32,000 bases of DNA, from positions 2,610,001 through 2,642,000 of the forward strand of contig NZ_LT934425.1 of the NCBI RefSeq assembly GCF_900232105.1, written 5' to 3'. The notes beneath the pieces are model-generated. The model was not told where the DNA came from. It was given only the letters and a program-made list of their open reading frames with translations, and ran no database searches. The position numbers and the translations under genes were made by a program. This stretch comes from Candidatus Kuenenia stuttgartensis (GTDB lineage Bacteria > Planctomycetota > Brocadiia > Brocadiales > Brocadiaceae). Positions 12,491 through 25,395 of this stretch are shown one piece after another; position 1 is the first letter of the stretch; each line of letters begins with the position of its first letter.

Positions 12491-12653
12491 TTCACGATGA
12501 CTGGAGTGCGGCATGAAGCTGGAAAGCTTTGGCGATGTACTTGCATCCATAAGGAAGAACTCTATTGATCCCTCAGATTACAGCGATTGTACGGGTGCAT
12601 TCCTGATTTTTTGTAACTTCCGCTATGTTTTAATGAAACGTTGCAGTAGTGTT

Positions 12654-12668
12654 AACCCTGACAGGGTT
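12654..12668. repeat. Single REP unit AACCCTGACAGGGTT
   Basis: Exact 15-nt palindrome of the family that flanks the RAYT gene. Confidence 0.8.
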
Positions 12669-12771
12669 GTTTCGTCCTGACCCCATCATTAACGGTTACA
12701 AAAAAACGGGAATGCTCCCGATTGTACAGATTAAAAAAACGTAGGAACACGGAGCACCATGTCCCTGCAAT

Positions 12772-12928
12772 TGACCAATGACCAATGACGAAACACCTTC
12801 TAATTACAAGCCCAAATTCCGCAGACAAGGAAAAATGTTCAATATTCAATTCTCAATGTTCAATTCTCAAATTGTTGCTCATTTGCCTCTATTCTTTTAC
12901 ATTGAGCATTGAATATTGAATATTAATT
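12772..12928. repeat. Heptamer-periodic repeat block (TGACCAA x3, then AATNYTC arrays forming a long hairpin)
   Basis: tgaccaa tgaccaa tgacgaa (12772-12792). aatgttc aatattc aattctc aatgttc aattctc (12834-12868), opposed by attgagc attgaat attgaat (12901-12921). Confidence 0.8.
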
Positions 12929-12961
12929 TTCAAAAAGGTGCTAACGGAGCTTTTCGCGGTG

Positions 12962-12986
12962 TTTTTTCAAAAATCTAAAGTGTTAC
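12962..12986. repeat. Solo copy of the TTTTCAAAAAYCTAAAGTGTTAC motif, 13 nt upstream of the helicase start
   Basis: ttttttcaaaaatctaaagtgttac. A weaker second copy (ttttcaaaaaggtgctaac) lies at about 12927-12945. Confidence 0.6.
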
Positions 12987-12999
12987 AAAAGACTTCTTA

Positions 13000-15900
13000 A
13001 TGAAGATGGGGAATAGCCGCATTGTGAACTCAGATTTAACCTTTATTACCAATGAAGAAAATAGAAGCCTCCTGGAAAGATTCAGGGTCCTTATTGCAGA
13101 CACCCGGCTCTTTGATGTACTCGTTGGTTATTTCTATACCAGCGGATTCCATGCCATCTACAAATCCCTGGAAGATACCGAAAAGATCAGGATTCTTATC
13201 GGGATAAGTACAAACAAACAGGCAATAGAACTCATTCAAAAAGCAAAAAACAATCACCAGCCATTCCTTCCATATTCTCACGCCGAAGTAAAAGAACAAT
13301 TCGAACAATCTGTCACGGAAGAAGTAGAAAATGCTGAGGATAGAACAGAAGTTGAAGGGGGGATCCTTAAGTTTATTGAATGGCTGAAAAACGGAAAACT
13401 GGAAATCAGGGCTTATCCCACCGAAAATATCCACGCAAAGCTTTACATTATGACTTTTGTGGAAGGTGACAGGGATACCGGGAGAGTCATTACCGGGTCT
13501 AGTAATTTTACTCAATCAGGCCTTGTTGATAACCTTGAATTTAATGTAGAGTTAAAAACCAGGGCGGATTATGAATTTGCACTCCAAAAATTCAATGAAC
13601 TGTGGAAAGACGCCGTTGATGTAAGGGAACGATATATCTATACGATTCAAATAAAGACATGGCTGAACAACACCATTACCCCTTACGAATTGTATCTGAA
13701 ATTTTTATATGAATATTTCAAAGACGAACTCAGTCAGGCAGATGAAGTGTTTTTGAAATATCTTCCCCATGAATTTAAAAAACTGGAATATCAGGAGCAG
13801 GCAGTTTTAAACGCCAGGAAGATACTTCTGGAATACGGCGGCGTTTTTATCTCTGATGTTGTAGGGTTAGGCAAGACATACATATCGGCAATGCTGGCAG
13901 GACAGCTTGACGGCAGGACACTTGTCATTGCCCCTCCTGTGCTGCTTGAAAGATCGAATCCCGGTTCATGGACTAATGTATTTTCCGATTTCAGGGTATC
14001 GGCGGATTTTGAATCACTCGGTAAATTGGATGACCTTATTGACAGAGGGACAGAGAAATACACCAATATTATCATTGATGAGGCACACCGTTTTAGAACG
14101 GAAACAACGGTTACCTATGAGAAATTGGCGGAAATCTGCCGTGGCAAAAGAATTATTCTTGTAACGGCAACGCCTTATAACAATGCGCCAAAAGATATTT
14201 TAAGTCTTTTAAAATTATTTCAAAAAGCCAAAAAAAGCACTATTCCAAATCTTCAGGACATGGAAGGCTTCTTTAATGGACTAGATAAAAAGTTAAAAAA
14301 ACTGGACAGGCAGAAAGATTATATTAGATACATAAATACGGTAAAAGAAAATGCGCGGGAATTACGGGAAAAAGTCCTCAAATATCTCATGGTTCGCCGT
14401 ACCCGAACAGAGATTGAGAGATATTTTGGTGAAGACATAAAGAGCCAAAACATTAGATTCCCTTACGTTGAAAAGCCTGTTCCTCTTTTTTATGAACTCA
14501 ACGATACGGAGGATGAAATATTCAGCAAAACCATAGCATTGATAGCGCAAAAATTCAAATACGCCCGTTATATGCCTATGCTTTATTATGACGGTAAAGT
14601 TGGCCAGCTTGAAAAGCAGTCACAGAAAAACATGGGCAAGTTTATGAAAATACTGCTTGTTAAGCGTCTTGAAAGCAGTTTCTTTGCATTTAAAAATTCG
14701 GTGGACAGATTCCTCCGCTCTTACGAGATGTTTATAAAAGAGCTTGATGACGGAAGTGTTTATATAAGCAAGAAACACACTGGTAAAATATTTGAGTTGC
14801 TTGATAGTGACGATGATGAAGCCGTCCAGCGATTGATAGAGGAAGGCAAGGCGGAAAGATATGCAAGCAGTGAATTTAGAGAAGGCTTAAGAGATGATTT
14901 ACAGCACGACCATGACATTCTGCTTGAAATTAAAAAACTATGGCATCACATTGACCGCGACCCAAAGCTTTTAAAATTTTTGTGGGAATTATCCAAAAAC
15001 CCGGTCTTAAAAGAGAATCATCTGATTATCTTTACGGAATCAAAGGAAACCGCAAACTATCTGTTCAAAAACATAAATGAACATTATCCGGATAAGGTGC
15101 TGTGTTTTACTGGTGATTCAAGCGAGGCAACGCGAGACAAGGTTATTGAAAATTTTGACGCCAAAGCACGTCATCCTAAGGAAGATTACCGGATACTGGT
15201 CTCTACAGAAGTATTGGCTGAAGGCGTTAACCTGCACCGTTCCAATACAGTGATAAATTACGATATCCCCTGGAATCCTACCCGCATGATGCAGCGCGTA
15301 GGGCGTGTCAACCGCGTGGATACGCTATTTGAAACGATACATACCTTTAATTTTTTCCCGACCAAACAATCGAATGACCAGATAAAACTGAAAGAAGCGG
15401 CAGAGGCTAAAATCAATGCCTTCTTAACCCTGCTTGGAGGCGACGCAGAACTTTTAACAGAAGGAGAACCCATAGGCTCGCATGAATTATTTAACAGGTT
15501 GATTTCCAGACAAACGCTGGAAGGTGAGGAAGGGTCGGAGGAAAGCGAATTGAAATACCTCCAGGTCATTAAAGAGATTCGCGATAAAGACCCCGACCTT
15601 TTTGAAAAAATAAAACGCCTCCCCAAAAAGGCGCGCACTGCAAAAACCCTGACAGGGTTCTCAACCCTGTCAGGGTTAATTACCTACTTCAGACGGGGAA
15701 AACTCCAGAAATTTTTCAAAGCCGGCAGTAAAAATGTGGCGGAAGAACTGGATTTCATATCTGCGGCAAAGATTTTGGAAAGCGCCCCTGATGAAGAAAA
15801 GAAAGACCTTCCCGGACACTTTTACGAACTTCTGGATAAAAACAAAGCGGCATTTATCTTAGCGACAACGGAAGAAGTGCCGCAGCAATGGCAAAGGGGC

Positions 15901-16224
15901 GGACGTGACAGCACGGCAAGTATCCTGAGAATTTTAAAGGCAACCACGAAGAACACCCAAAAACTGACAGAAGACCAGGAACTATACCTCAAAAAAGTCC
16001 TCACCCAACTCGAGGAAGGCGGACTGCCCAAACAGACTGCAACGCAAACACTGAAAACCCTGAATGCGCTGAAGAATGAAATCGTTAACCCCCTCAAGGT
16101 ACTGGCAGTACTTCGGACGCATATACCGAAAAAACTTCTGGAAGAACATTATGCTGAGCAAAACCCAGCGGTATTTGGCAAGCGGGAAGTCATATTATCA
16201 TTATATTTGACAGCAAAACCCTGA
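13000..16224 (+). CDS. HKD/PLD-family nuclease domain fused to an SNF2-family helicase (defence-type helicase-nuclease)
   Basis: 1074 aa. One HKD motif, NIHAKLYIM...VITGSSNFTQSGL. Helicase motifs DVVGLGKT (I), IIIDEAHRFR (II), VTATPYNN (III), EGVNLH...NYDIPWNPTRMMQRVGRVNR (V/VI). Contains an in-frame REP doublet, and its stop codon lies inside a REP. Confidence 0.9.
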   Translation: MKMGNSRIVNSDLTFITNEENRSLLERFRVLIADTRLFDVLVGYFYTSGFHAIYKSLEDTEKIRILIGISTNKQAIELIQKAKNNHQPFLPYSHAEVKEQFEQSVTEEVENAEDRTEVEGGILKFIEWLKNGKLEIRAYPTENIHAKLYIMTFVEGDRDTGRVITGSSNFTQSGLVDNLEFNVELKTRADYEFALQKFNELWKDAVDVRERYIYTIQIKTWLNNTITPYELYLKFLYEYFKDELSQADEVFLKYLPHEFKKLEYQEQAVLNARKILLEYGGVFISDVVGLGKTYISAMLAGQLDGRTLVIAPPVLLERSNPGSWTNVFSDFRVSADFESLGKLDDLIDRGTEKYTNIIIDEAHRFRTETTVTYEKLAEICRGKRIILVTATPYNNAPKDILSLLKLFQKAKKSTIPNLQDMEGFFNGLDKKLKKLDRQKDYIRYINTVKENARELREKVLKYLMVRRTRTEIERYFGEDIKSQNIRFPYVEKPVPLFYELNDTEDEIFSKTIALIAQKFKYARYMPMLYYDGKVGQLEKQSQKNMGKFMKILLVKRLESSFFAFKNSVDRFLRSYEMFIKELDDGSVYISKKHTGKIFELLDSDDDEAVQRLIEEGKAERYASSEFREGLRDDLQHDHDILLEIKKLWHHIDRDPKLLKFLWELSKNPVLKENHLIIFTESKETANYLFKNINEHYPDKVLCFTGDSSEATRDKVIENFDAKARHPKEDYRILVSTEVLAEGVNLHRSNTVINYDIPWNPTRMMQRVGRVNRVDTLFETIHTFNFFPTKQSNDQIKLKEAAEAKINAFLTLLGGDAELLTEGEPIGSHELFNRLISRQTLEGEEGSEESELKYLQVIKEIRDKDPDLFEKIKRLPKKARTAKTLTGFSTLSGLITYFRRGKLQKFFKAGSKNVAEELDFISAAKILESAPDEEKKDLPGHFYELLDKNKAAFILATTEEVPQQWQRGGRDSTASILRILKATTKNTQKLTEDQELYLKKVLTQLEEGGLPKQTATQTLKTLNALKNEIVNPLKVLAVLRTHIPKKLLEEHYAEQNPAVFGKREVILSLYLTAKP
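15645..15677. repeat. 33-bp REP doublet inside the helicase ORF (in frame)
   Basis: aaccctgacagggtt-ctc-aaccctgtcagggtt, translated as (K)TLTGFSTLSGL. Confidence 0.9.
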
Positions 16225-16249
16225 CAGGGTTCTTAACCCTGTCAGGGTT
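16217..16249. repeat. 33-bp REP doublet, left flank of the RAYT; supplies the helicase stop codon
   Basis: aaccctgacagggtt-ctt-aaccctgtcagggtt. The helicase TGA (16222-16224) is the cccTGAcag of the first unit. Confidence 0.9.
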
Positions 16250-16270
16250 ACTTGTCCTTGGAGGAAGACA

Positions 16271-16834
16271 ATGAGCACAACTATCACGCCACTGTTACCA
16301 GGACACTGGTATCATATTTATAACCGGGGTATCAATGGCGAAACCATTTATCACACCGAGGCAAATTACCAATATTTTCTGGACTTGCTCGCCAAATATG
16401 TTTTTCTCACAGCAAAAGTATATGCCTATTGTCTTATGAAGAACCATTTTCACCTGTTGGTTTCTATTCATGATGATACAAAGAGAAAGCCACATCTGTA
16501 TTTTTCAGATATGTTTAACAGCTATACACAAGGGCTTAACAAACACCTGGGAAGGACGGGGAGTCTCTTCGAACGCCCCTTTCGCCGTAAGGTGATTTCA
16601 TCCGAAAAACAGCGGGTTCAGGTGACTTTATATATACACAACAATCCCAGGCATCATGGTATCATGAACGACATTGCGAAGTACCAATACTCTTCTTACA
16701 GGGCAGTGATGTCAAGCGCCCCAACGAAAGTAGAGCGTGAAGAAGTGCTTTCGTGGTTTGGTGGGCGTGATAGTTTTGTGGCTTATCATGGTGCCAGTCG
16801 TGATGACATTTCAGATGATTTAACATTGGAGTAA
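16271..16834 (+). CDS. REP-associated tyrosine transposase (RAYT; IS200/IS605 Y1-transposase superfamily)
   Basis: 187 aa. WYHIYNRGINGETIY, HUH motif AYCLMKNHFHLLV, catalytic-Tyr region TLYIHNNPRHHG, and FNSYTQGLNKHLGRTGSLFERPFRRK. Flanked on both sides by REP doublets. Confidence 0.85.
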   Translation: MSTTITPLLPGHWYHIYNRGINGETIYHTEANYQYFLDLLAKYVFLTAKVYAYCLMKNHFHLLVSIHDDTKRKPHLYFSDMFNSYTQGLNKHLGRTGSLFERPFRRKVISSEKQRVQVTLYIHNNPRHHGIMNDIAKYQYSSYRAVMSSAPTKVEREEVLSWFGGRDSFVAYHGASRDDISDDLTLE

Positions 16835-16844
16835 ATTTACCGTC

Positions 16845-16877
16845 AACCCTGACAGGGTTTGAAACCCTGTCAGGGTT
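16845..16877. repeat. 33-bp REP doublet, right flank of the RAYT
   Basis: aaccctgacagggtt-tga-aaccctgtcagggtt, ending 16 nt upstream of the MTase ATG. Confidence 0.9.
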
Positions 16878-16893
16878 AAAATGAGGCATTGAC

Positions 16894-19800
16894 ATGGATA
16901 AACAACAGGCAAAACAAATTATTCAGGAGACATTTGAGAACCCTTTTGATAAGGGCAGGTTTACCCTATTCATCAAAAATCTTCTGAACCATATTGAAGA
17001 AAACCGCATTCCTCCACGTCATGGTCAATTCATTCCTGACGCTTACAAGCCATACATCAGCAGTCTGGCGCGAATCGGCAAATTCAATGACAATGAAAAC
17101 AGGGTTGATATCCTTATCATAAAACTTCAGAAAGAGACCTCCCTTGAACGCGCCCGCACCATGCAGCGAAACTTTGTTGCCGGGTATTTACAGGGCAAAT
17201 ACGGTAGTTCAAATGAAAAAGAAGCTGCACTGGTTGCCTTTGTATCCCCGGATTCGGCAGACTGGCGTTTTTCACTGGTTAAGATGGACTATAAGTTTGA
17301 ACAGACTCAAGCCGGCAGAATGAAGGTAAAAGAAGAGTTTACACCTGCACGCCGATGGTCATTCCTGGTAGGCGCAAACGAAACCAGCCACACCGCCCAG
17401 AGCAGGCTGGTTAATATGTTGGCAAATGATGAGCATAACCCAACCCTTAAAGAACTGGAACAGGCATTTGATATTGAAACCGTAACCGAAGAATTTTTCC
17501 GAGAATACCGTGGGCTTTTTATCCGTACAAAAGAAGAACTGGACAAAATAGTAGAGACAGGTTTCAAACCTGTCTCTACCAGCCTGAAAAAGGAATTTGA
17601 ATCTAAAGGAGTTGATACCGTAAACTTTGCAAAAAAACTATTGGGCCAGATTGTATTTCTCTATTTTTTACAGAAAAAAGGCTGGTTCGGTGTAGCCCGC
17701 GAAGCCGAATGGGGCACAGGCTCTAAACACTTTTTGCGAGAGCTTTTTGAAAAAAGGCACGGCGACTATAAAAATTTCTTTAATGACATTCTGGAACCAC
17801 TCTTTTACGAAGCCTTGCGTAACGACCGCAGTCATGATGATCACTATTACAGCCAGTTTAACTGCAAAATCCCCTTCTTAAACGGTGGTCTTTTTGATCC
17901 CATTGGCAACAATGGCGGATACAACTGGGTACATAACGATATCTGTCTGCCGGACAGCCTATTCTCTAATAAAAATAAAACCAAAGAAGGCGATGAGGGT
18001 AATGGTATTCTGGATATTTTTGACCGTTACAATTTTACTGTTAGAGAAGATGAACCACTGGAAAAAGAGGTTGCCATTGATCCTGAACTTCTGGGCAAGG
18101 CGTATGAAAAGTTTAATGCAGTCCGTCCTGACAACTTTGAGGAATATGAAAAAGCGTTAAAGAGCGGTAAAAAAGGTGAAGAAAGCAAATTCAACAAGCA
18201 ATATGGCGTTTATTACACACCCCGTGAGATTGTCCACTATATGTGCCAGCAGAGCCTGATCAATTACTTGCACACAGAATTGATCGCTTCCAACCCTGAC
18301 AGGGTTCCAAACCCTGTCAGGGTTAAAGATATCGAAACCCTGATACACTTCGGCGAGCAGGTTAGCGAAAATGAAGAAATAGCATTGATCAAAGAACAAA
18401 TAATCTTAGAGGGTAAACAGAAATCTTCTGATTACAAATCAAAACTACCCGAAAGCATACGCAAGAATGCCGTATTAATTGATCAGAAACTGGCGGACAT
18501 CACCGTCTGCGACCCGGCAGTTGGCTCAGGCGCCTTTCCCGTTGGTATGATGAGCGAAATTGTAAAGGCGAGAAATGCGCTAGCACCCTTTATTGTAACT
18601 CAAGCTTCCCTATCTGCGTGTGTAGACGCACAGGCAGGCAGCTTGAGCCCAGGAACCCTGTCAGGGTTAAGGTTAGATACGCCAAGAACAACCTATGATT
18701 TCAAACGGCAATGCATCGAAAAATCTCTTTACGGCGTGGATATTGACCCCGGCGCGGTAGAAATTGCAAAACTTCGGCTGTGGCTATCGCTTGTTGTGGA
18801 TGAAGATGACATAAAAACCATCAAACCGCTACCCAATCTGGATTATAGAATTATGCAAGGCAACAGTCTGATTGAGATTCTAAACAACGAATTTTTTGAT
18901 GTGGCATTTAATCAAGAGAAGAAGGCACTTATAGAGCAACTTAAAAAAGCAAAGGACGAACTTTTTGCAATTTCAACTCCTTCATTAAAAGATGCAAAGC
19001 GAAAAGAAATTGAGGCATTGATTGCCAAAATTATTGAGCATGACAAAAAGGCAGCAATAGAAAAAATAAATTTAGAAATTCGTAGTAAGAAGGAACAAGG
19101 CAAGTTGTTTAATGATAAAATAATAGAAGAAGTAAATAGTAAGAGGATATTAGAATTAGAGGGAAAAATTCAAAAAATAAAAGACCTTAAAATCCCAGGA
19201 CCATCAGAACATTTTGAATGGCATCTTAATTTTGTCGAGGTTTTTCTCGAAAAAGGAAGATTTGATATTGTGATTGCAAATCCACCTTATTTACGCATTC
19301 AAGAAATCCAGAAAAATACTCCGGAACTAGCTGGAAAACTTAAGGATTGTTACTTATCAGCATCAGGCAGCTTCGATATTTATGCCTGTTTTGTTGAATT
19401 GGGAATAAGGTTAATGCATGATAGCGGTAACATTGCTTATATATTACCGCACAAGTTTTTCCAGGCATCTTTTGGGAAGAACCTACGAAAATTAATTTCC
19501 TCACAAAAGCTTTTACGAAAAATTGTAGATTTCGGTAGTAGTCAGGTATTTGAATCAGCAACAACATATACGTGCCTTCTGTTTTTATCTTCTCAAAATA
19601 AGAATTTCAAGTTTGCGGAACTGAAACCAAATACAAAATTAGACGATTTAAATGATGTATTTGCGTCTATAAATAGCAATAATGACTTGCGTTCAGAAAA
19701 TGTAGATGTTGCAATCATATCAAATAATACTGTGACAGAAAAAGAATGGCACTTTTCTGCAAGTAGTGCTGGAAATATCCTGTCCAAATTGAAGCAACAG

Positions 19801-20628
19801 CCAAGAACACTTGCTGATATTTGTGAAAAGATTTTTGTCGGTTTGCAAACAAGTGCTGACAAAATATATTTTCTTGAGCATATCTCAGAGAAGGATGGTG
19901 TGATAAATGCCTTTTCTAAGTCGCTCGATCGGGAAATCTCTATTGAAAAAGAAATTGTTAAACCATTATTAAAAGGTGCGGATGTTCATCGTTATTCAAA
20001 GTTACAGCCTAAAATATGGTGTATTTTCCCGTATGAACTGAAGAATAATAAGGTATTCCTTTATTCACAGAAAGAGATAAAGAGAAAATTCCCTTTAGCA
20101 TGGAAATATTTACTAGAGAATAAGAATGAACTAGAAAATAGAGAGCATGGGAGATTTAAAAAAAATTGGTGGTGTTTCAGTAGACCGCAAAATTTAACAG
20201 AATTTGAAAAGATGAAGATTCTTACACCAGATATTGCTTCAAATTGTCAAATGACAATTGATGATAAAGGTCTTTACCATACAACAACAGTGTACAGTTT
20301 TGTTTTTAAAGAAAACGGTAAAGAATCATCGAAATATTTCTTAGCCTTATTGAATTCAAAGTTATTGTGGTACTTTTTAACAACAACTGGTTCTGTTCTT
20401 CGCGGAGGCTTTTTTAGATTTAAAACAAACTATTTATTGCCTTTCCCCATCCCGAAAGAGCTTTCACAAAGCGAGCAAAAGCCTTTTATTGCCGTTGTTG
20501 ATCAAATCCTCATCACTAAAAAGAAAGACCCAAGCACCGACACGTCAGCGATGGAAAGGCAGATTGACCAAATGGTTTACAAACTCTACGACCTCACGCC
20601 GGAGGAGATTGCGATCGTTGAAGGGTAA
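16894..20628 (+). CDS. Large gamma-class N6-adenine DNA methyltransferase (Eco57I/PglX-like, with TaqI_C-like C-terminal module)
   Basis: 1244 aa. Motif I VCDPAVGSGAFPV; LYGVDIDPGAVEIAKLRLWLSLV; motif IV DIVIANPPYLRIQE. C-terminal LNSKLLWYFLTTTGSVLRGGFFRFKTNYLLPFPIP and the terminal QMVYKLYDLTPEEIAIVEG. The N-terminal region of about 530 aa has unknown function. Carries three in-frame repeat insertions. Confidence 0.9.
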   Translation: MDKQQAKQIIQETFENPFDKGRFTLFIKNLLNHIEENRIPPRHGQFIPDAYKPYISSLARIGKFNDNENRVDILIIKLQKETSLERARTMQRNFVAGYLQGKYGSSNEKEAALVAFVSPDSADWRFSLVKMDYKFEQTQAGRMKVKEEFTPARRWSFLVGANETSHTAQSRLVNMLANDEHNPTLKELEQAFDIETVTEEFFREYRGLFIRTKEELDKIVETGFKPVSTSLKKEFESKGVDTVNFAKKLLGQIVFLYFLQKKGWFGVAREAEWGTGSKHFLRELFEKRHGDYKNFFNDILEPLFYEALRNDRSHDDHYYSQFNCKIPFLNGGLFDPIGNNGGYNWVHNDICLPDSLFSNKNKTKEGDEGNGILDIFDRYNFTVREDEPLEKEVAIDPELLGKAYEKFNAVRPDNFEEYEKALKSGKKGEESKFNKQYGVYYTPREIVHYMCQQSLINYLHTELIASNPDRVPNPVRVKDIETLIHFGEQVSENEEIALIKEQIILEGKQKSSDYKSKLPESIRKNAVLIDQKLADITVCDPAVGSGAFPVGMMSEIVKARNALAPFIVTQASLSACVDAQAGSLSPGTLSGLRLDTPRTTYDFKRQCIEKSLYGVDIDPGAVEIAKLRLWLSLVVDEDDIKTIKPLPNLDYRIMQGNSLIEILNNEFFDVAFNQEKKALIEQLKKAKDELFAISTPSLKDAKRKEIEALIAKIIEHDKKAAIEKINLEIRSKKEQGKLFNDKIIEEVNSKRILELEGKIQKIKDLKIPGPSEHFEWHLNFVEVFLEKGRFDIVIANPPYLRIQEIQKNTPELAGKLKDCYLSASGSFDIYACFVELGIRLMHDSGNIAYILPHKFFQASFGKNLRKLISSQKLLRKIVDFGSSQVFESATTYTCLLFLSSQNKNFKFAELKPNTKLDDLNDVFASINSNNDLRSENVDVAIISNNTVTEKEWHFSASSAGNILSKLKQQPRTLADICEKIFVGLQTSADKIYFLEHISEKDGVINAFSKSLDREISIEKEIVKPLLKGADVHRYSKLQPKIWCIFPYELKNNKVFLYSQKEIKRKFPLAWKYLLENKNELENREHGRFKKNWWCFSRPQNLTEFEKMKILTPDIASNCQMTIDDKGLYHTTTVYSFVFKENGKESSKYFLALLNSKLLWYFLTTTGSVLRGGFFRFKTNYLLPFPIPKELSQSEQKPFIAVVDQILITKKKDPSTDTSAMERQIDQMVYKLYDLTPEEIAIVEG
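17551..17579. repeat. Perfect 29-bp GTAGAGAC...GTCTCTAC hairpin inside the MTase ORF (in frame)
   Basis: gtagagacaggttt-c-aaacctgtctctac, translated as VETGFKPVST. Same stem ends as the intergenic hairpins at 4406 and 8080/8142. Confidence 0.85.
18292..18324. repeat. 33-bp REP doublet inside the MTase ORF (in frame)
   Basis: aaccctgacagggtt-cca-aaccctgtcagggtt, translated as NPDRVPNPVRV. Confidence 0.9.
18654..18668. repeat. Single REP unit inside the MTase ORF, preceded by another palindrome
   Basis: aaccctgtcagggtt, translated as (G)TLSGL. Upstream at 18598-18647, ctcaagct...agcttgag encloses tgcgtgtgtagacgca. Confidence 0.8.
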
Positions 20629-20668
20629 AAGATGAACAAAAAAAGGAACTATTACATCTCCTAAAGAT

Positions 20669-22366
20669 ATGAATAAAATACTTGATAAATTACATCACAT
20701 GTCTAAAATTCCCAGGCATGGTACAGACTGTTATAAGCAATGGCTTGAACAGAAAGATTTTTTGCAGTTTCTTTTAGATACAAGCCATGGAGATATTCCT
20801 TTATATGTCTCTTATAAAGAAAGCTATATTTATTCTGTATTTCTACCGCAAAACTGTCTGCGGGGGAATTATATTGACGATTTAATGAATTGGAACTGCT
20901 TCCCTGACAGTTCATGGGGATACAGTTATTCTTATGGTAAAAAGGAAAGGGCAATAGATATTTCTCTTTTGCATCCTTTCGATTCTTCCGGGTCAAAATT
21001 ATTAAAGAATGCAACCCCTATAACTTTTCTAAGGAGTTTTGAAGGCAGAATAGGGCAAAAAAGTTATATAGAGGTTCTTCAATTGTTTACCCATCTTAAT
21101 GGTTTGCACTTTGTAGAAGAAAAGAATGCCTATTGTCGCTTAAATGAAGATGGAGATATTGAAGAAATTATTAAAATTCATCATACACCGGATGATATTT
21201 TAGTTACCATTAAACAAGATGTACTGGATCATCATTTGTTTCTATCTAACTCAGTATTGTTACGACTTTTTGACAGAACTCTTTGCAATAACTGGATAAA
21301 ATCTAGCGCAGAAACCCGGAATAAATCTAATTTTTCTGATAAAAAGAATAAAATATATGCTCGACAAGGTATTGCGTATGATAAAGAATGTCTGCCCACT
21401 GCGGGCTGGCTGAGAGGATTTCAAATCATACGAAATTATCAGCCACGCAAAAAGATGATAAAGATTTTAACCGATGGACATTCAAAACCTCAAAAGTATG
21501 AAGAGTTTATTGCCCATGATTGGAAGCGTAAGAAAATTGCGTCTTTTTCCTGTGACCCCAAAAAACTGGACAATTATTTTGTTGAATCAGATAAACCTTT
21601 TGAGACATCTCCTGTGTTTTTTAAACCAGATGTCCTTTTAAAGTATAAACAGAATCCAGAAAAATATACTCTCGAACAACGAAGTATACATTGTAGGGAG
21701 AGTTGGAGTTTAAAAACATACGATATTAACGAAGCGGGCCAAGTCCATACCTATTTGATTTACTTGGGAGATCTTCCGCATTCAGAACAACTTCATTGGA
21801 AGTCTTATAATGAGAAACCAAAGGCTAAAATATCCAGGAGAGCTTTTACAACAGATTTCATGGGGAAGTGTGATTTATCGTATGAGCCTTTATCTGCATT
21901 AAAAAAAGCTCTAAAAGATTTAGAGGAAGAAAAACCAGATTTATGGTCATGTTCAGATGGAAAACTAAATCAGCAACTCCACTATCCGGTTACTGATTCA
22001 CTGAAAGAATGGATAGACGAAATTCATACATTGGATAAGCTTGTAGTTGAAGGGCTTAAAAAACCGTATTTAAGGAATATAGCGATATCATTGAATTGTT
22101 ATGACAATAAAGTGGGCACTATAAAACTACTAAAAAAGATTCTTGAGACAAAAGAAATTGATAGTCATGAAATCAACGAAATCATATCCCCTTTGGAAGA
22201 TATTCATTTTTTGAGAACAAAGTTAGCTGGGCATAGCTCTGGAAAAGAAGCAGATAAAATCAGAAAAGATCTAATTGCAAAGCATGGAGACCTAAGAAAG
22301 CATTTTCGCAACCTTGTTGAAAAAACTGATAAAAGCATAAAAGGGATGAAACGAATCCAACTATAA
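20669..22366 (+). CDS. Uncharacterised 565-aa protein, third gene of the helicase/MTase module (possible C-terminal HEPN-like Rx5H)
   Basis: Long uninterrupted ORF 41 nt after the MTase, on the same strand and with the same AT-rich composition as the MTase 3' half. No P-loop, TM segment or nuclease motif was seen. The only candidate motif is IHFLRTKLAGHSSGKEA near the C-terminus. Confidence 0.6.
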   Translation: MNKILDKLHHMSKIPRHGTDCYKQWLEQKDFLQFLLDTSHGDIPLYVSYKESYIYSVFLPQNCLRGNYIDDLMNWNCFPDSSWGYSYSYGKKERAIDISLLHPFDSSGSKLLKNATPITFLRSFEGRIGQKSYIEVLQLFTHLNGLHFVEEKNAYCRLNEDGDIEEIIKIHHTPDDILVTIKQDVLDHHLFLSNSVLLRLFDRTLCNNWIKSSAETRNKSNFSDKKNKIYARQGIAYDKECLPTAGWLRGFQIIRNYQPRKKMIKILTDGHSKPQKYEEFIAHDWKRKKIASFSCDPKKLDNYFVESDKPFETSPVFFKPDVLLKYKQNPEKYTLEQRSIHCRESWSLKTYDINEAGQVHTYLIYLGDLPHSEQLHWKSYNEKPKAKISRRAFTTDFMGKCDLSYEPLSALKKALKDLEEEKPDLWSCSDGKLNQQLHYPVTDSLKEWIDEIHTLDKLVVEGLKKPYLRNIAISLNCYDNKVGTIKLLKKILETKEIDSHEINEIISPLEDIHFLRTKLAGHSSGKEADKIRKDLIAKHGDLRKHFRNLVEKTDKSIKGMKRIQL

Positions 22367-22401
22367 GCGTACGACAAGGGAATCGAATCTTTCCATAGTC
22401 A

Positions 22402-22512
22402 CACCTTGATTAGTGATTATAATGTTGAGTATTCATAACTGTTTTAAGTTTTTTTTGGCGCATCTTTGCTATCATGAAAGAGGATTATCTGCAAAACATG
22501 AACAAACAAGCC
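22402..22512 (+). repeat. Direct repeat R, copy 1 (about 110 bp)
   Basis: caccttgattagtgattataatgttgagtattcataactgttttaag...gctatcatgaaagaggattatctgcaaaacATGaacaaacaagcc. Near-identical to copies at 24387 and 25433; a diverged copy lies at 23485. Confidence 0.85.
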
Positions 22513-22708
22513 CCGCTAGACAGGCATGTCCGTTATCTAACAAAGCAAACCAATATGCCTGCCTGAGCGAGGATGTTCACAGACATGTCCACGATTTGAA
22601 AAACACATTGACCCCATTAGATGTTTACTATCTAACGGGGCTGTCCAAATGGTTTACAAACTCTACGACCTCACGCCAGAGGAGATTGTGATTGTGGAGG
22701 GAAAATAA
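22498..22708 (+). pseudogene. Ghost of an MTase gene: N-terminal codons (MNKQA) plus C-terminal remnant (MVYKLYDLTPEEIVIVEGK*)
   Basis: 22649-22708 is nearly identical to the true MTase 3' end (20572-20628). The two parts are not in one frame and are separated by stops. Confidence 0.7.
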
Positions 22709-22714
22709 ACAGGA

Positions 22715-22930
22715 TTGATTTATCATATCTATTGTGACGAAAGCAGGCAGTCGAAAGATCGCTTTATGGTAATAGGCGGCGCAATTATTCCATCGGATAA
22801 TGTAGAGCCGTTTAATAAAACGATGCAGAAATACCGAAATGAACAAAAGATGTTTTCAGAGCTAAAATGGTCAAAAGTAACCAATCAGAAACTTACCGAA
22901 TACAAAGGTTTAATAAATAATATAAATTGA
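22715..22930 (+). pseudogene. Truncated DUF3800-like gene (N-terminal 71 codons only)
   Basis: (TTG)IYHIYCDESRQSKDRFMVIGGAII...FSELKWSKV resembles the DUF3800 N-terminus (iyiDESg...ElKWsk). Full-length members are about 3 times longer. Confidence 0.45.
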
Positions 22931-22980
22931 TATAATGCTTATATCTTATTCTATCATTGCTTGAAAGAGGATGTATTTAA

Positions 22981-23178
22981 ATGCGGGAATTGAAAGTGCC
23001 CGTATCGGCAGATGAAATTATAGAAGCGGTGAAAAAGATGAAAAAAAGCGACAGGGAGGCTTTTGTTGAGGATCTACTGGCTATAACTTCTCCTGAGTAT
23101 TTACAGAGCATTAAAGAAGCAAGGGCAGGCTACAAGACAGGCAAGACAAAATCCCATAAAGAGATTTTTGGAAAATGA
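22981..23178 (+). CDS. Putative antitoxin of the RelE/ParE-like module
   Basis: 65 aa with a 4-nt ATGA overlap with the downstream toxin gene. The family itself was not recognised. Confidence 0.55.
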   Translation: MRELKVPVSADEIIEAVKKMKKSDREAFVEDLLAITSPEYLQSIKEARAGYKTGKTKSHKEIFGK

Positions 23179-23434
23179 ACTATAACCTTGTTTATACTTA
23201 CAGGGCAGAGAGGGACATAAAGAAACTGGATTCTTCGATAAAAAACCGTATCGGGAATGCCCTTTTAAAACTTCGGGATAATCCCTTATTATATTCTGAA
23301 AAACTGAGTGACCCTGCACTTGGGACATACAAATTCAGGATGGGAGATTACAGGGTAATCTTTGATATTGAAGGCAGCGAGTTGTTATTCTCAGAATTGG
23401 CCATAGAAGGGAAATTTATAAAAGATTGATATAA
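23175..23434 (+). pseudogene. RelE/ParE-family toxin with a 3'-proximal frameshift
   Basis: N-terminal 69 aa are typical (YRAERDIKKLDSSIKNRIGNALLKLRDNP...GTYKFRMGDYRVIFDIEGSE). The expected C-terminus VVILRIGHRREIYKRLI* is present, but in the +2 frame from 23381 to 23434. Confidence 0.75.
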
Positions 23435-23484
23435 CCCTTAGCTCCCACTCAATCCATCCTTGCCAAAACCTTCCGCGGCGAACG

Positions 23485-23607
23485 CTGGGAGTGATTAAAG
23501 GGAAGAATCATTCAAAATGACAAGTTATATTTGAAGGGAAAAGTTCAAAGGCGAATCTTTTCTATCAAGAAAGACGAGTATTACTTGCAAAACATGGATA
23601 AGCAATT
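23485..23607 (+). repeat. Direct repeat R, diverged copy
   Basis: gagtgattaaagggaagaatcattcaaaatgac...aagttcaaaggcgaatcttttctatcaagaaagacgagtattacttgcaaaacATGgataagcaattt aligns by eye with R1-R3. Confidence 0.55.
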
Positions 23608-23699
23608 TGAGAAAACAGTTAGTGGGTTTGTTATAATATAATAAGAAAAGTAATTAGAGTACTGAGCGTACGTTTTAAAATAGAAAGGAATTACGTAAA

Positions 23700-23927
23700 A
23701 TGAATACGGCAATTGAGAGAATAGCGATTGATCCAAAGATATGCAGTGGAAAACCCTGTATTAAAGGCACAAGAATACCAGTACATATAATACTTGACCT
23801 TCTTGCCGCTGGAGAAGATTTTGATGGTATAAAAAAGGCATATCCCAATATTACGGATAAAGATATTAGGGCATGCCTGAATTATGCAGCAGTTCTTGCT
23901 GATGAAGAAGCCGGGGTTACGGCGTGA
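23700..23927 (+). CDS. DUF433-family protein (antitoxin-like partner of DUF5615)
   Basis: 75 aa: IAIDPKICSGKPCIKGTRIPVHIILDLLAAGEDFDGIKKAYPNITDKDIRACLNYA. Confidence 0.85.
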   Translation: MNTAIERIAIDPKICSGKPCIKGTRIPVHIILDLLAAGEDFDGIKKAYPNITDKDIRACLNYAAVLADEEAGVTA

Positions 23928-24287
23928 AGATTTTTGCCAATGAAAACCTCTTTGAGCCAATTATTGATTATTTAAGGTCTTTAGGGAATGATGTGCTGAG
24001 TATCAGAGACTGCGGTCTTTCCGGTATTTCTGATGATGAGGTATATGAGATGGCGTGCAAGGAAAACAGGGTCATTATTACCATGGACAAAGACTTCACA
24101 AGAATATTCAGATTTCCTCTCCAAAGATGCGGGGGGAATTGTTGTTGCTAAAATTTATAAAAGACCTGTTGATGAGACGCTCACAATATTCAGAAAATAT
24201 TATCAGTCTATCAAGGCGGAGGACGTAAAAGAAAATCTGGTTATTATTACCCCGGAAGGTGTACGGATAAGAAGGTCAGCAAGATGA
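23924..24287 (+). pseudogene. DUF5615 (Mut7-C/PIN-like) toxin-like gene, frameshifted
   Basis: Frame 1 reads (V)KIFANENLFEPIIDYLRSLGNDVL...ENRVIITMDKDFTRIF. This continues in another frame as ..LSKDAGGIVVAKIYKRPVDETLTIF...LVIITPEGVRIRR. Length is 364 nt, that is 3n+1. The shift lies near 24105-24125, not in a long homopolymer. Confidence 0.7.
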
Positions 24288-24386
24288 CGAACGACTTCCA
24301 ATTCTCCCTTACTCTTGTTACCCAAACCCCTGCTGTAAAAGAATAACATTTCTTTTTATCCCGCTTTGATAAACCAGGGGGGGCGT

Positions 24387-24495
24387 GCCTTGATCAGAGA
24401 TTATAATGTTGAGTATTCATGACTGTTTTAAGTTTTTCTGCGCATATTTGCTCTCATGAAAAGAGGATTATCTGCAAAACATGGACAAGCAAGCC
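24387..24495 (+). repeat. Direct repeat R, copy 2
   Basis: gccttgatcagagattataatgttgagtattcatgactgttttaag...ctctcatgaaaagaggattatctgcaaaacATGgacaagcaagcc. Confidence 0.85.
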
Positions 24496-24612
24496 AAAGT
24501 CCGCGATTTGGAATGCCAGAGTAATACCAGATGTTTACCGTCTAACGGGGTTGACAAGATTGTCTACAACCTTTACGACCTCGCGCCGGAGGAGGCTGAG
24601 ATTGTGGAGGGG
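24481..24612 (+). pseudogene. Ghost MTase mini-ORF (MDKQAK...VDKIVYNLYDLAPEEAEIVEG)
   Basis: Starts like the true MTase (MDKQQAK) and ends like it (..VYKLYDLTPEEIAIVEG) with only about 25 codons between. The ORF then runs on to 24789. Confidence 0.65.
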
Positions 24613-24728
24613 AAAAAGGGGAAGAATGGGAATAAACAGAGCATACTGTATAAATATTTCATCGAAGTAATGCCATGTGCCGCCTTGCAGAAAATGTTTG
24701 GTTTTGAAGTACATCGGAAGGAAAGAAT

Positions 24729-25232
24729 ATGTATTATTTTGAGATACTGGAAGGATTGTATAAGAGAGATGTCAGATATCTCATCGTAGGCGGATTGTCC
24801 GTCAATCTCTATGGTGTTCCACGGGTAACCCAGGACATAGACATCGTTATTGCTATGAGTAAAGAAAATATTCTTAAGACAACCTCCCTATTGAAAAAAT
24901 TGGGCTATATTCCTCGCCTGCCCGTAAATCCCGAAGACCTTGCAAACCCCGAGAATGTAAAAGACTGGATAGAAACTAAAAACCTTAAGGCGTTTAGTTT
25001 CTATCATAAAAAAGATAATTATAAGGTTGTTGATATTGTGCTTGTTCATCCATTGGATTTCGAAAAATCGTTTATAAACAGAACAATCAAAAAGGCAATG
25101 GATATAGACATTTATCTGGCATCAATAGATGATATAATAAAGATGAAAGAATTTAGCGGAAGAAGTCAGGATTTAAGTGATATTGCAATGCTCAGGAAAG
25201 TAAGGAAATATCTGGAGGAAGAGAATGGATAA
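24729..25232 (+). CDS. Nucleotidyltransferase-fold protein (MNT/AbiEii-like small NTase)
   Basis: 167 aa. YLIVGGLSVNLYGVPRVTQDIDIVI (G-S...D.D NTase signature) and C-terminal SIDDIIKMKEFSGRSQDLSDIAML. Confidence 0.65.
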   Translation: MYYFEILEGLYKRDVRYLIVGGLSVNLYGVPRVTQDIDIVIAMSKENILKTTSLLKKLGYIPRLPVNPEDLANPENVKDWIETKNLKAFSFYHKKDNYKVVDIVLVHPLDFEKSFINRTIKKAMDIDIYLASIDDIIKMKEFSGRSQDLSDIAMLRKVRKYLEEENG

Positions 25233-25395
25233 GGGATTTATGTATACACTTGAAGATGAAAAAATAATGGAATATATGAAATTATCCACAGAGGAAAAAT
25301 TAAAATGGCTGGACGAAATCAACGAGTTTAACAAAATAGTATTAAGTGAACGCGAGAAGGGGTTAAGGGAGAAATTAAGAAAATGCGAAATATAA
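25225..25395 (+). CDS. Hypothetical 56-aa protein coupled to the NTase gene
   Basis: Hand-translated MDKGFMYTLEDEKIMEYMKLSTEEKLKWLDEINEFNKIVLSEREKGLREKLRKCEI. 8-nt ATGGATAA overlap with the NTase stop. Confidence 0.4.
   Translation: MDKGFMYTLEDEKIMEYMKLSTEEKLKWLDEINEFNKIVLSEREKGLREKLRKCEI

Follow-up and report, generated by a model that had tools for sequence, protein, structure and literature searches.

A probable REPtron with untagged nested palindromes at the helicase-methyltransferase junction of a mobile defence system in Candidatus Kuenenia stuttgartensis

In the usual description, REP-associated tyrosine transposases (RAYTs) are inherited vertically, are specific to a lineage and partner GTAG-tagged repetitive extragenic palindromic (REP) sequences, and to our knowledge the benefit that they bring to a host is not known. 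The closest described systems are E. coli TnpAREP (PDB 4ER8), said to go back to Ton-Hoang and to Messing in 2012, and the REPIN-RAYT systems of Pseudomonas, said to go back to Bertels and Rainey in 2011; Rickettsia palindromic elements (RPEs) within open reading frames (ORFs) were reportedly described by Ogata in 2000. Here we analyse a 32,000-nucleotide stretch of the Candidatus Kuenenia stuttgartensis genome (contig NZ_LT934425.1, positions 2,610,001 to 2,642,000 of the forward strand; G+C content 39.6%), hereafter the window, in which a RAYT gene bracketed by hairpin-forming palindromes lies between a helicase gene and a restriction-modification methyltransferase gene. We consider this locus very probably a REPtron, that is, a selectively maintained, single-copy RAYT of the TnpAREP type together with its cognate repeats, placed at the helicase/methyltransferase junction of a mobile defence system. 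That view draws on the identity and fold of the gene, the architecture and dispersal of the repeats, their co-variation with the RAYT and the copies that lie in frame within proteins.

The published classification supplies the frame for comparison. Quentin et al. 2018 (PMC6006769) described REPtrons, in-frame REPs in the RAYT genes of subclass 2.4, 'double-foot' hairpins, and untagged atypical hairpins around subclass 2.6. TnpAY1 subclass 2.4 (Bertels group 4) comprises proteins of about 194 aa with the motifs NH[IFV]H, WQ and YIxNNP, patchily distributed over many phyla and devoid of a C-terminal extension, and subclass 2.6 (Bertels group 5), mostly from Bacteroidetes, comprises proteins of about 179 aa with YIH[QN]NP and an SS tail (PMC6006769). 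Di Nocera 2013 (PMC3733652) reported intragenic GTAG/CGTC REPs, and repeat termini that donate stop codons to upstream ORFs.

The RAYT gene (16271..16834, + strand, ATG start) encodes a TnpAREP-like HUH-Y1 transposase of 187 aa, assigned on its HUH and Y motifs, profile matches and predicted fold; its Shine-Dalgarno sequence, GGAGG, stands 7 nt 5' of the start. KNHFHLLVS, the HUH motif, occupies aa 57-65 of the translation and YIHNNP aa 121-126, in agreement with a first-pass annotation that had proposed, from the sequence alone, a REPtron built from a 187-aa ORF with NHFHLLV and YIHNNP. Across an alignment of 37 RAYT homologues HIYNRG, H59-F-H61 and Y121-I-H-x-N-P are invariant, and the HUH and Y motifs align with HMH and YIYINP of E. 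coli TnpAREP. A profile of the family, compared with the solved structures in PDB, matched E. coli TnpAREP 4ER8 as its sole hit (E = 9.6e-6); the single protein found no match among PDB sequences by phmmer. The AlphaFold2 model (mean predicted local distance difference test, pLDDT, 92.1; predicted template modelling score, pTM, 0.89) likewise has 4er8_A as its top Foldseek match in PDB (E = 3.6e-8; TM 0.64/0.72), after which IS608, ISDra2 and IS200 TnpA are ranked. Homologues number more than 3,400, some of them called RayT by JGI. The ratio of nonsynonymous to synonymous change (dN/dS) is 0.13-0.14 against two orthologues, and 0.10 for the helicase. An identical RAYT protein occurs at the same position in at least 10 assemblies, and the complete 4.33-Mb genome CP049055.1 (L001) carries the gene at one place only, in a count that covers this RAYT itself; here and below, L-numbers designate individual related loci or assembly stretches and P-numbers homologous proteins. 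One of these stretches, L003, is 100% identical to window positions 6271-26834. Hence, the RAYT is a single-copy, vertically stable gene under purifying selection.

The repeat unit is a 33-nt nested palindrome, AACCCTGACAGGGTT-YNR-AACCCTGTCAGGGTT. Its arm, the 15-mer AACCCTGWCAGGGTT, is itself palindromic (7+1+7), and a doublet consists of an arm, 3 nt and the reverse complement of the arm, which gives a perfect 15-bp stem and a 3-nt loop; given the symmetry of the arm, its two copies in a doublet repeat each other both directly and in inverse orientation. Both 33-bp doublets reported by the first-pass annotation proved exact, with 15-mer matches at 16217, 16235, 16845 and 16863. The left doublet (16217..16249; 15+CTT+15) lies 22 bp 5' of the RAYT ORF and overlaps the helicase stop, the codon itself (16222-16224, in AAA CCC TGA) being supplied by the repeat; the right doublet (16845..16877; 15+TGA+15) lies 11 bp 3' of the ORF, within the 59 bp that separate the RAYT stop from the methyltransferase start. 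As a description of the repeats, brackets around the gene are correct but incomplete, since copies also stand in frame inside both flanking genes: a doublet in the helicase coding sequence (15645..15677; aa 882-893, KTLTGFSTLSGL), a doublet in that of the methyltransferase (18292..18324; aa 467-477, NPDRVPNPVRV) and a singlet further on in the latter (18654..18668; aa 587-592, GTLSGL). An additional singlet (12654-12668) occupies the centre of a 129-bp element resembling a miniature inverted-repeat transposable element (12592..12720), with 26-nt terminal inverted repeats, CGGGTGCATTCCTGATTTTTTGTAAC / GTTACAAAAAAACGGGAATGCTCCCG; homologues of this element with full doublets were also observed at many Kuenenia and Brocadia sites. 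No strand is assigned to any of these repeat features.

The window holds ten copies of the 15-mer, against 0.03 +/- 0.17 expected (0 of 100 shuffles reach ten), and all are confined to 12654-18668 (12.6-18.7 kb), the remaining 26 kb having none. Folded as single-stranded DNA (ssDNA), the four doublets reach -17.3 to -18.7 kcal/mol (z = -6.4 to -8.1), and the two intergenic doublets, as RNA in 76-nt context, -29 to -31 kcal/mol. Rfam (E <= 1) offered no family for the hairpins, and the 15-mer was not found in the literature searched.

The association between RAYT and hairpin extends well beyond this locus. Among 80 RAYT relatives collected by protein alone (29-48% identity) with repeats disregarded, and hence forming an unbiased set, 61 have a perfect hairpin (stem of at least 10 bp, short loop) adjoining or inside the gene. 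Its architecture is that of the window, namely a 14-16-nt near-palindromic arm and a 3-nt YNR-like loop (e.g. AGACCCTAAAGGTCT-tta-...), and it recurred in all four further relatives. Moreover, the sequence of the arm follows the RAYT clusters. Shared hairpin architecture combined with co-variation of arm and RAYT is as expected of a REPtron and, together with the motifs and the match to 4ER8 in profile and fold, upholds the interpretation of the first-pass annotation.

The exact doublet, with its 30 specified bases, is also widely dispersed. A genome scan that sets a lower bound, and that yields no total for the source genome, returned at least 120 matches at scattered positions, in several anammox genomes; enrichment of the 15-mer beyond the locus, the test on which the first-pass annotation had staked its reading, was thereby found, as a minimum. 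Candidatus Brocadia pituitae carries at least 9 doublets at no fewer than 6 distant loci, B. carolinensis at least 7 and K. hertensis at least 8. With unrelated flanks, the exact doublet occurs in Kuenenia, Brocadia, KSB1, Balneolaceae, Bacteroidales, Calditrichota and Moduliflexus, as well as in isolates of Flavobacterium and Marinilabilia, so that at least six phyla are represented among the matches listed. Of the 120 listed 8-kb loci, for which the doublet was the sole search criterion, 12 have a RAYT homologue (31-87% identity) that immediately adjoins or encloses it. IMG/VR viral contigs do not contain the exact doublet, and carriage by phage is accordingly unsupported. In the KSB1 metagenome-assembled genome RBG_16_48_16 (L012, L013, L057, L098, L099, L121 and L127), the doublet sits within another larger repeat, specific to that lineage, whose shared flanks read ...CAACTTTTATTGCAATGGTTGT / TGCCATATTCATTAG...; these comparisons suggest that the doublet has more than once come to serve as the core of a longer repeat family.

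Several results weigh against our interpretation and have to be set beside this evidence. The Y1-transposase homology that the first-pass annotation had expected of a hidden Markov model search is there in significant E-values, for Pfam Y1_Tnp (PF01797; E = 4.4e-3, 17.6 bits) and for NCBIfam REP_Tyr_transpos NF047646, a model labelled equivalog (E = 6.2e-12, 45.6 bits), but both scores stay below the curated cut-offs of 23 and 80. The exact 15-mer of the window occurs in none of the 80 unbiased RAYT-relative loci, so that what links RAYT and repeat is a common architecture and co-variation rather than an identical sequence. Flanks of the 129-bp element surround full doublets in other anammox loci (L046, L048, L054, L071, L100, L107 and L111); part of the dispersal in anammox genomes is via this element, whose spread need not depend on the RAYT. 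The flanks of 129 doublets hold no conserved GT[AG]G or CGTC tetranucleotide, showing no more than a preference for T/C at -1 and for A/G at +1, and the conserved foot, AACC...GGTT, lies within the arms. This is a REP without the tetranucleotide that guides cleavage in characterised systems. Finally, orthologous copies are old and positionally stable, some of them decaying (e.g. the methyltransferase copies of L087), and no excision, insertion or activity event was observed among the loci compared.

The design of the unit is compatible with residence inside genes. It measures exactly 11 codons, of which frames 0 and 1 are open and frame 2 holds a TGA; the loop excepted, the unit equals its reverse complement, so that the same pattern applies to the other strand. 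With this length and two stop-free frames, copies can persist in frame in protein linkers. The open frames encode TLTGFxTLSGL or NPDRVxNPVRV. Long ORFs contain 17 of the 129 doublets, always in an open frame (13 TLTGFxTLSGL, 4 NPDRVxNPVRV), the hosts including aroA (5-enolpyruvylshikimate-3-phosphate synthase), surface proteins of the type IX secretion system, a GNAT protein, a membrane protein and RAYT genes themselves. Indeed, in about 22 of the 80 RAYT relatives the gene contains its own hairpin in the segment that separates HuH from Y (nt +170 to +260), and REP-derived peptides are seen in RAYT homologues (e.g. TPDRVSNPVRG in P0079). Where the window has the helicase doublet, helicase homologues in other phyla show a linker of 8 aa that varies in sequence and bears no relation to the repeat. 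We considered a clean 33-bp insertion at this site and rejected it, the copy substituting for the linker with a net gain of 2-3 aa. Palindrome-like peptides were observed at the helicase linker of P0150, P0138 and P0200 as well.

Comparison of orthologous sites reveals arms that hold still and loops that do not. At the helicase site the arms are perfect in six lineages with flanks 84-90% identical, and the anammox spacers read CTC, GAG, CTT, TGG and GGA; the change from CTC to GAG is a reverse complement, a flip of the loop. The locus of Ca. Brocadia pituitae (L212) was fetched via its helicase and is hence unbiased as to repeats: 135 arm nt, spread over four doublets and one singlet, agree with the window throughout, and 4 of 9 spacer bases deviate from it. 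As its helicase is only 86% identical in nucleotides (proportion of synonymous differences, pS, 0.43), the arms are constrained or homogenised beyond coding needs. Of the orthologous left sites, those of L212, L019, L073 and L087 hold a singlet, those of L001 and L103 a doublet; the right site remains a doublet in all of L212, L087, L103 and L019, where the spacers are TCA, TGA, CCG and TAA. The methyltransferase doublet (18292), perfect in L212 and degenerate in L087 and L103, sits in a linker that differs between two methyltransferase alleles. The orthologous site of the singlet at 18654 is a full doublet in L103, L087 and L212, and the singlet is a former doublet that has shed one arm and the spacer (18 bp). 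At the left site and at 18654, indels of 18 bp convert doublet into singlet and back. This follows from the double symmetry of the arms, which repeat each other both directly and in inverse orientation: the deletion of 18 bp (6 codons) turns a doublet into a singlet, and the loop is able to flip.

The singlet at 18654 and a palindrome that contains GTAG together form an insertion of 25 aa (…SLSACVDAQAGSLSPGTLSGL…) that the other methyltransferase allele lacks. That second palindrome, CTGCGTGTGTAGACGCACAGGCAGG, is imperfect and lies just 5' of the singlet, at about 18600-18653 of the window. Similar insertion peptides, DLSACGHAQAG and DLSASQLRRAG, were observed in the helicase homologues P0216 and P0210.

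The flanking genes form the defence pair. Upstream stands an HKD (PLD) nuclease fused to an SNF2 helicase (13000..16224, + strand; 1074 aa; Pfam PLDc_2, SNF2-rel_dom and Helicase_C), which PADLOC calls 'HKD+Snf2' (E = 1.3e-46); downstream stands a Type IIG-like restriction-modification methyltransferase (16894..20628, + strand; 1244 aa; Pfam Eco57I, TaqI_C and N6_Mtase), called REase_MTase_IIG at 1119 bits. The proposal of the first-pass annotation that the RAYT splits a coupled helicase-methyltransferase pair agrees with L211, whose helicase is 78% identical and which has no RAYT: there, 2 bp separate the helicase stop from the methyltransferase start. The junction of L213, however, holds another gene, AlbA_2/HATPase. 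In L103 (Ca. Kuenenia hertensis, reverse complement, ~2056-2315) the RAYT is replaced, between the same two doublets, by a 67-aa ORF (MATNAKKFIGKVLPDGHLSLPEDTAKEVG...), the stretch right after the left doublet being conserved together with its ribosome-binding region, and in L019 about 730 bp replace all of the RAYT except its last ~55 bp. The junction is a variable slot. In L212 the unit of helicase, RAYT (89%) and methyltransferase stands in a different genomic neighbourhood. The helicase cluster that is 99% identical to that of the window bears the name Ca. Kuenenia stuttgartiensis at NCBI, which places the source among the anammox planctomycetes. Helicase homologues (P0150-P0240) 77-82% identical occur in Nitrospirota, Desulfobacterota, Marinimicrobia, Bacteroidota and a Methanosarcinales archaeon known from a metagenome-assembled genome, an identity across phyla that marks the defence system as horizontally mobile. 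These identities also imply recent transfer of the system between phyla and possibly between domains.

Further observations concern the variability of the region. Two alleles of the locus exist among strains (window 18111-22628 versus L001 11811-16211). They differ in the C-terminal two thirds of the methyltransferase and in the downstream gene, which in the window encodes a 565-aa unknown protein and in the other allele gives way to AlbA_2 (358 aa) and a protein of 292 aa; identity between the alleles is about 98% over helicase, RAYT and the N-terminus of the methyltransferase. At the right boundary, 60 nt of the methyltransferase 3' end recur with 90% identity (20565-20624 and 22642-22701). 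We rejected the REP doublets as breakpoints of the swap, as homology stops at 18110 and resumes at 22629, the nearest REP being at 18292 and the right boundary a remnant of the methyltransferase 3' end. Further downstream (22400-25300), a run of small toxin-antitoxin-like genes (ParE toxin, DUF433/DUF5615, DUF6036), kept in all related assemblies, is typical of a defence island.

The company that RAYT relatives keep elsewhere bears on the strongest alternative. In L156 (257-6522), L094 (4336-7679) and L201 (1203-6590) a RAYT bracketed by its own hairpins lies between cas9 and cas1, and in six further short contigs (L186, L147, L173, L204, L020 and L082) a relative stands directly 5' of cas1; cas1 is the next gene in 6 of the 69 unbiased loci that have at least 300 bp downstream. 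L035 (370-5226) has the order cas4, RAYT, REP array, cas3, the array (2150-2850) consisting of about eight tandem units of ~85 bp, each with a REP singlet or doublet, in a cluster like a bacterial interspersed mosaic element (BIME). In L215 (85-5416; RAYT 57% identity) the gene sits between mod and res of a type III system, with a doublet inside mod. No description of a RAYT between cas9 and cas1 or inside restriction-modification operons was found in the literature searched, which is not proof of novelty. One could accordingly regard RAYT and repeats as an accessory or hitch-hiking module of defence systems that prefers their gene junctions, and that either spreads by horizontal transfer or contributes to defence through ssDNA processing, a hairpin 'bait', or recombination and diversification. 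The recurrent placement at cas9/cas1, 5' of cas1, at cas4/cas3 and at mod/res, in addition to the helicase/methyltransferase junction, speaks for this, as do the appearance of the same unit in the different neighbourhoods of Kuenenia-type genomes and B. pituitae, the 77-82% identity of the helicase across phyla and in an archaeon, and the CRISPR-like role speculated for RAYTs and REPINs (Bertels et al. 2017). Nevertheless, most of the RAYT relatives examined stand among housekeeping genes, mobile DNA accumulates in defence islands generally, the system appears intact where the RAYT has been replaced or lost (L103, L019), L211 keeps its pair tight with no RAYT present, and the sample is small and sequence-based. 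On balance we hold this alternative to be unlikely, and treat the recurrence in defence operons as a lead, not a finding, the sample being small and defence islands attracting mobile DNA.

It is nonetheless tempting to speculate, and we do so tentatively, on a further possibility: the RAYT lineage with 11-codon repeats may be associated with defence operons, recurring at CRISPR-Cas, mod/res and helicase/methyltransferase junctions and seeding hairpins in frame. It might then be either inter-phylum cargo or a participant in defence by ssDNA-hairpin processing. Travel as cargo of mobile defence systems would explain the 30 identical arm bases across at least six phyla, and the processing option echoes the speculation of Bertels et al. 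2017. Should the association hold, it would give a testable handle on RAYT function, and would suggest a way for hairpin repeats to reshape restriction and CRISPR genes, through linker insertions, new stop codons, split operons and cassette slots.

Far less probable is that 16217-16877 constitutes an autonomous IS200/IS605-like insertion sequence, transposing as a unit with the doublets as its left and right ends. Hairpins do flank the gene on both sides, the fold also matches IS608 and ISDra2 TnpA, and the different small ORF between the same doublets of L103 has a cassette-like look. The element is however present as one copy in a complete genome and in constant context in at least 10 assemblies, its top structural and profile match is TnpAREP and not IS200 TnpA, and no tnpB-like ORF occurs near the RAYT in the window. 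Furthermore, the supposed ends are identical symmetric palindromes instead of distinct left and right ends, the left bracket is only a singlet in several orthologues, and the hairpins vastly outnumber the genes and occur alone. The idea that the palindromes serve the restriction-modification system or a regulator as protein-binding operators or recognition sites, and have nothing to do with the ORF, is barely credible: perfect palindromes do cluster in and around one operon, and a minus-strand sigma-70-like match overlaps the left doublet, but the doublet adjoins RAYT homologues in genomes and contexts without this system, copies lie within unrelated ORFs such as aroA, and arm sequences co-vary with the RAYT and not with neighbouring genes.

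If the locus is a REPtron, as we favour, the RAYT would, by analogy with E. coli TnpAREP and IS608 TnpA, recognise the 33-nt hairpin on ssDNA, and may cleave and rejoin it through Tyr121 and a metal site at His59/His61. Such cleavage and rejoining would disperse the repeat and maintain its copies. We infer this activity on these hairpins from homology with 4ER8 and from co-variation, and any effect on expression would be of the same conditional kind. The first-pass annotation had suggested such effects, in that the element may uncouple or re-promote the methyltransferase and its hairpins could serve as terminators or stabilisers of the transcript. The left doublet is followed by ACTTGTCCTT, a weak terminator-like match, and is the only doublet with such a T-rich tail; no convincing + strand promoter was found 5' of the methyltransferase, which carries its own Shine-Dalgarno-like sequence, as does the RAYT. 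A modest point for this locus is that helicase and methyltransferase would no longer be coupled in translation and that three stable hairpins would stand within the transcripts.

Set against the described systems, the locus is familiar in its general plan. As in E. coli TnpAREP and the Pseudomonas REPIN-RAYT systems, a single-copy HUH-Y1 gene under purifying selection is flanked by its own palindromic repeats; the repeats are paired in inverted orientation, form hairpins and appear to be dispersed through the genome, RAYT and repeat co-vary, and the fold is nearest to 4ER8. It departs from described REPs in that the repeat has no GT[AG]G or CGTC foot, a spacer of just 3 nt and arms that are palindromic, and from the REPIN-RAYT systems in that F replaces the conserved W of the WQ motif in this RAYT family (LFE/LFQ), that the exact repeat is common to at least six phyla instead of one lineage, and that this gene stands inside a defence operon. 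The in-frame insertion into linkers of unrelated proteins resembles that of RPEs and intragenic REPs, and so does the donation of a stop codon to the ORF upstream; unlike RPEs, the unit is far shorter (33 nt) and gives the same peptide in either orientation, being its own reverse complement apart from the loop.

Within the TnpAY1 classification the protein does not fall neatly into one place. With subclass 2.4 it shares NHFH and YIHNNP, a similar length, a patchy distribution over many phyla, perfect hairpins with a 3-nt loop ('double-foot' REPs) and, in about 22 of the 80 relatives, an in-frame REP in the gene between HuH and Y; in contrast, REPs of that subclass open with GT[AG]G, after which comes a G/C-rich stem (Table S1, PMC6006769), and the window family has F[EQ] and a tail of about 45 aa with a conserved SS, as in subclasses 2.1 and 2.6. 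With subclass 2.6 it shares the YIH[QN]NP motif, the SS tail, a similar length and flanking 'atypical' hairpins that lack GTAG and appear to have further copies in the genome; yet the hairpins listed there (e.g. GCTAGCGCGAGCGTCCCGCTCGTG) have a 5' foot and an 8-10-bp stem instead of a 15-3-15 nested palindrome, and the HuH motif of that subclass is NH[LIV]H and its W motif WQ. The subclass 2.4 and 2.6 entries of Table S1 in Quentin et al. 2018 (PMC6006769) contain no match to the REP type of the window. Judged by motifs, the RAYT mixes features of subclasses 2.1, 2.4 and 2.6.

Taken together, a REPtron is a kind of system already known, and what differs here is the missing tag, the nested-palindrome arms, F in place of W and the mixture of subclass features. 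The usual picture of RAYTs is thereby extended by a family of more than 3,400 homologues with an untagged, 11-codon nested palindrome, by a repeat shared across phyla and by residence in defence operons.

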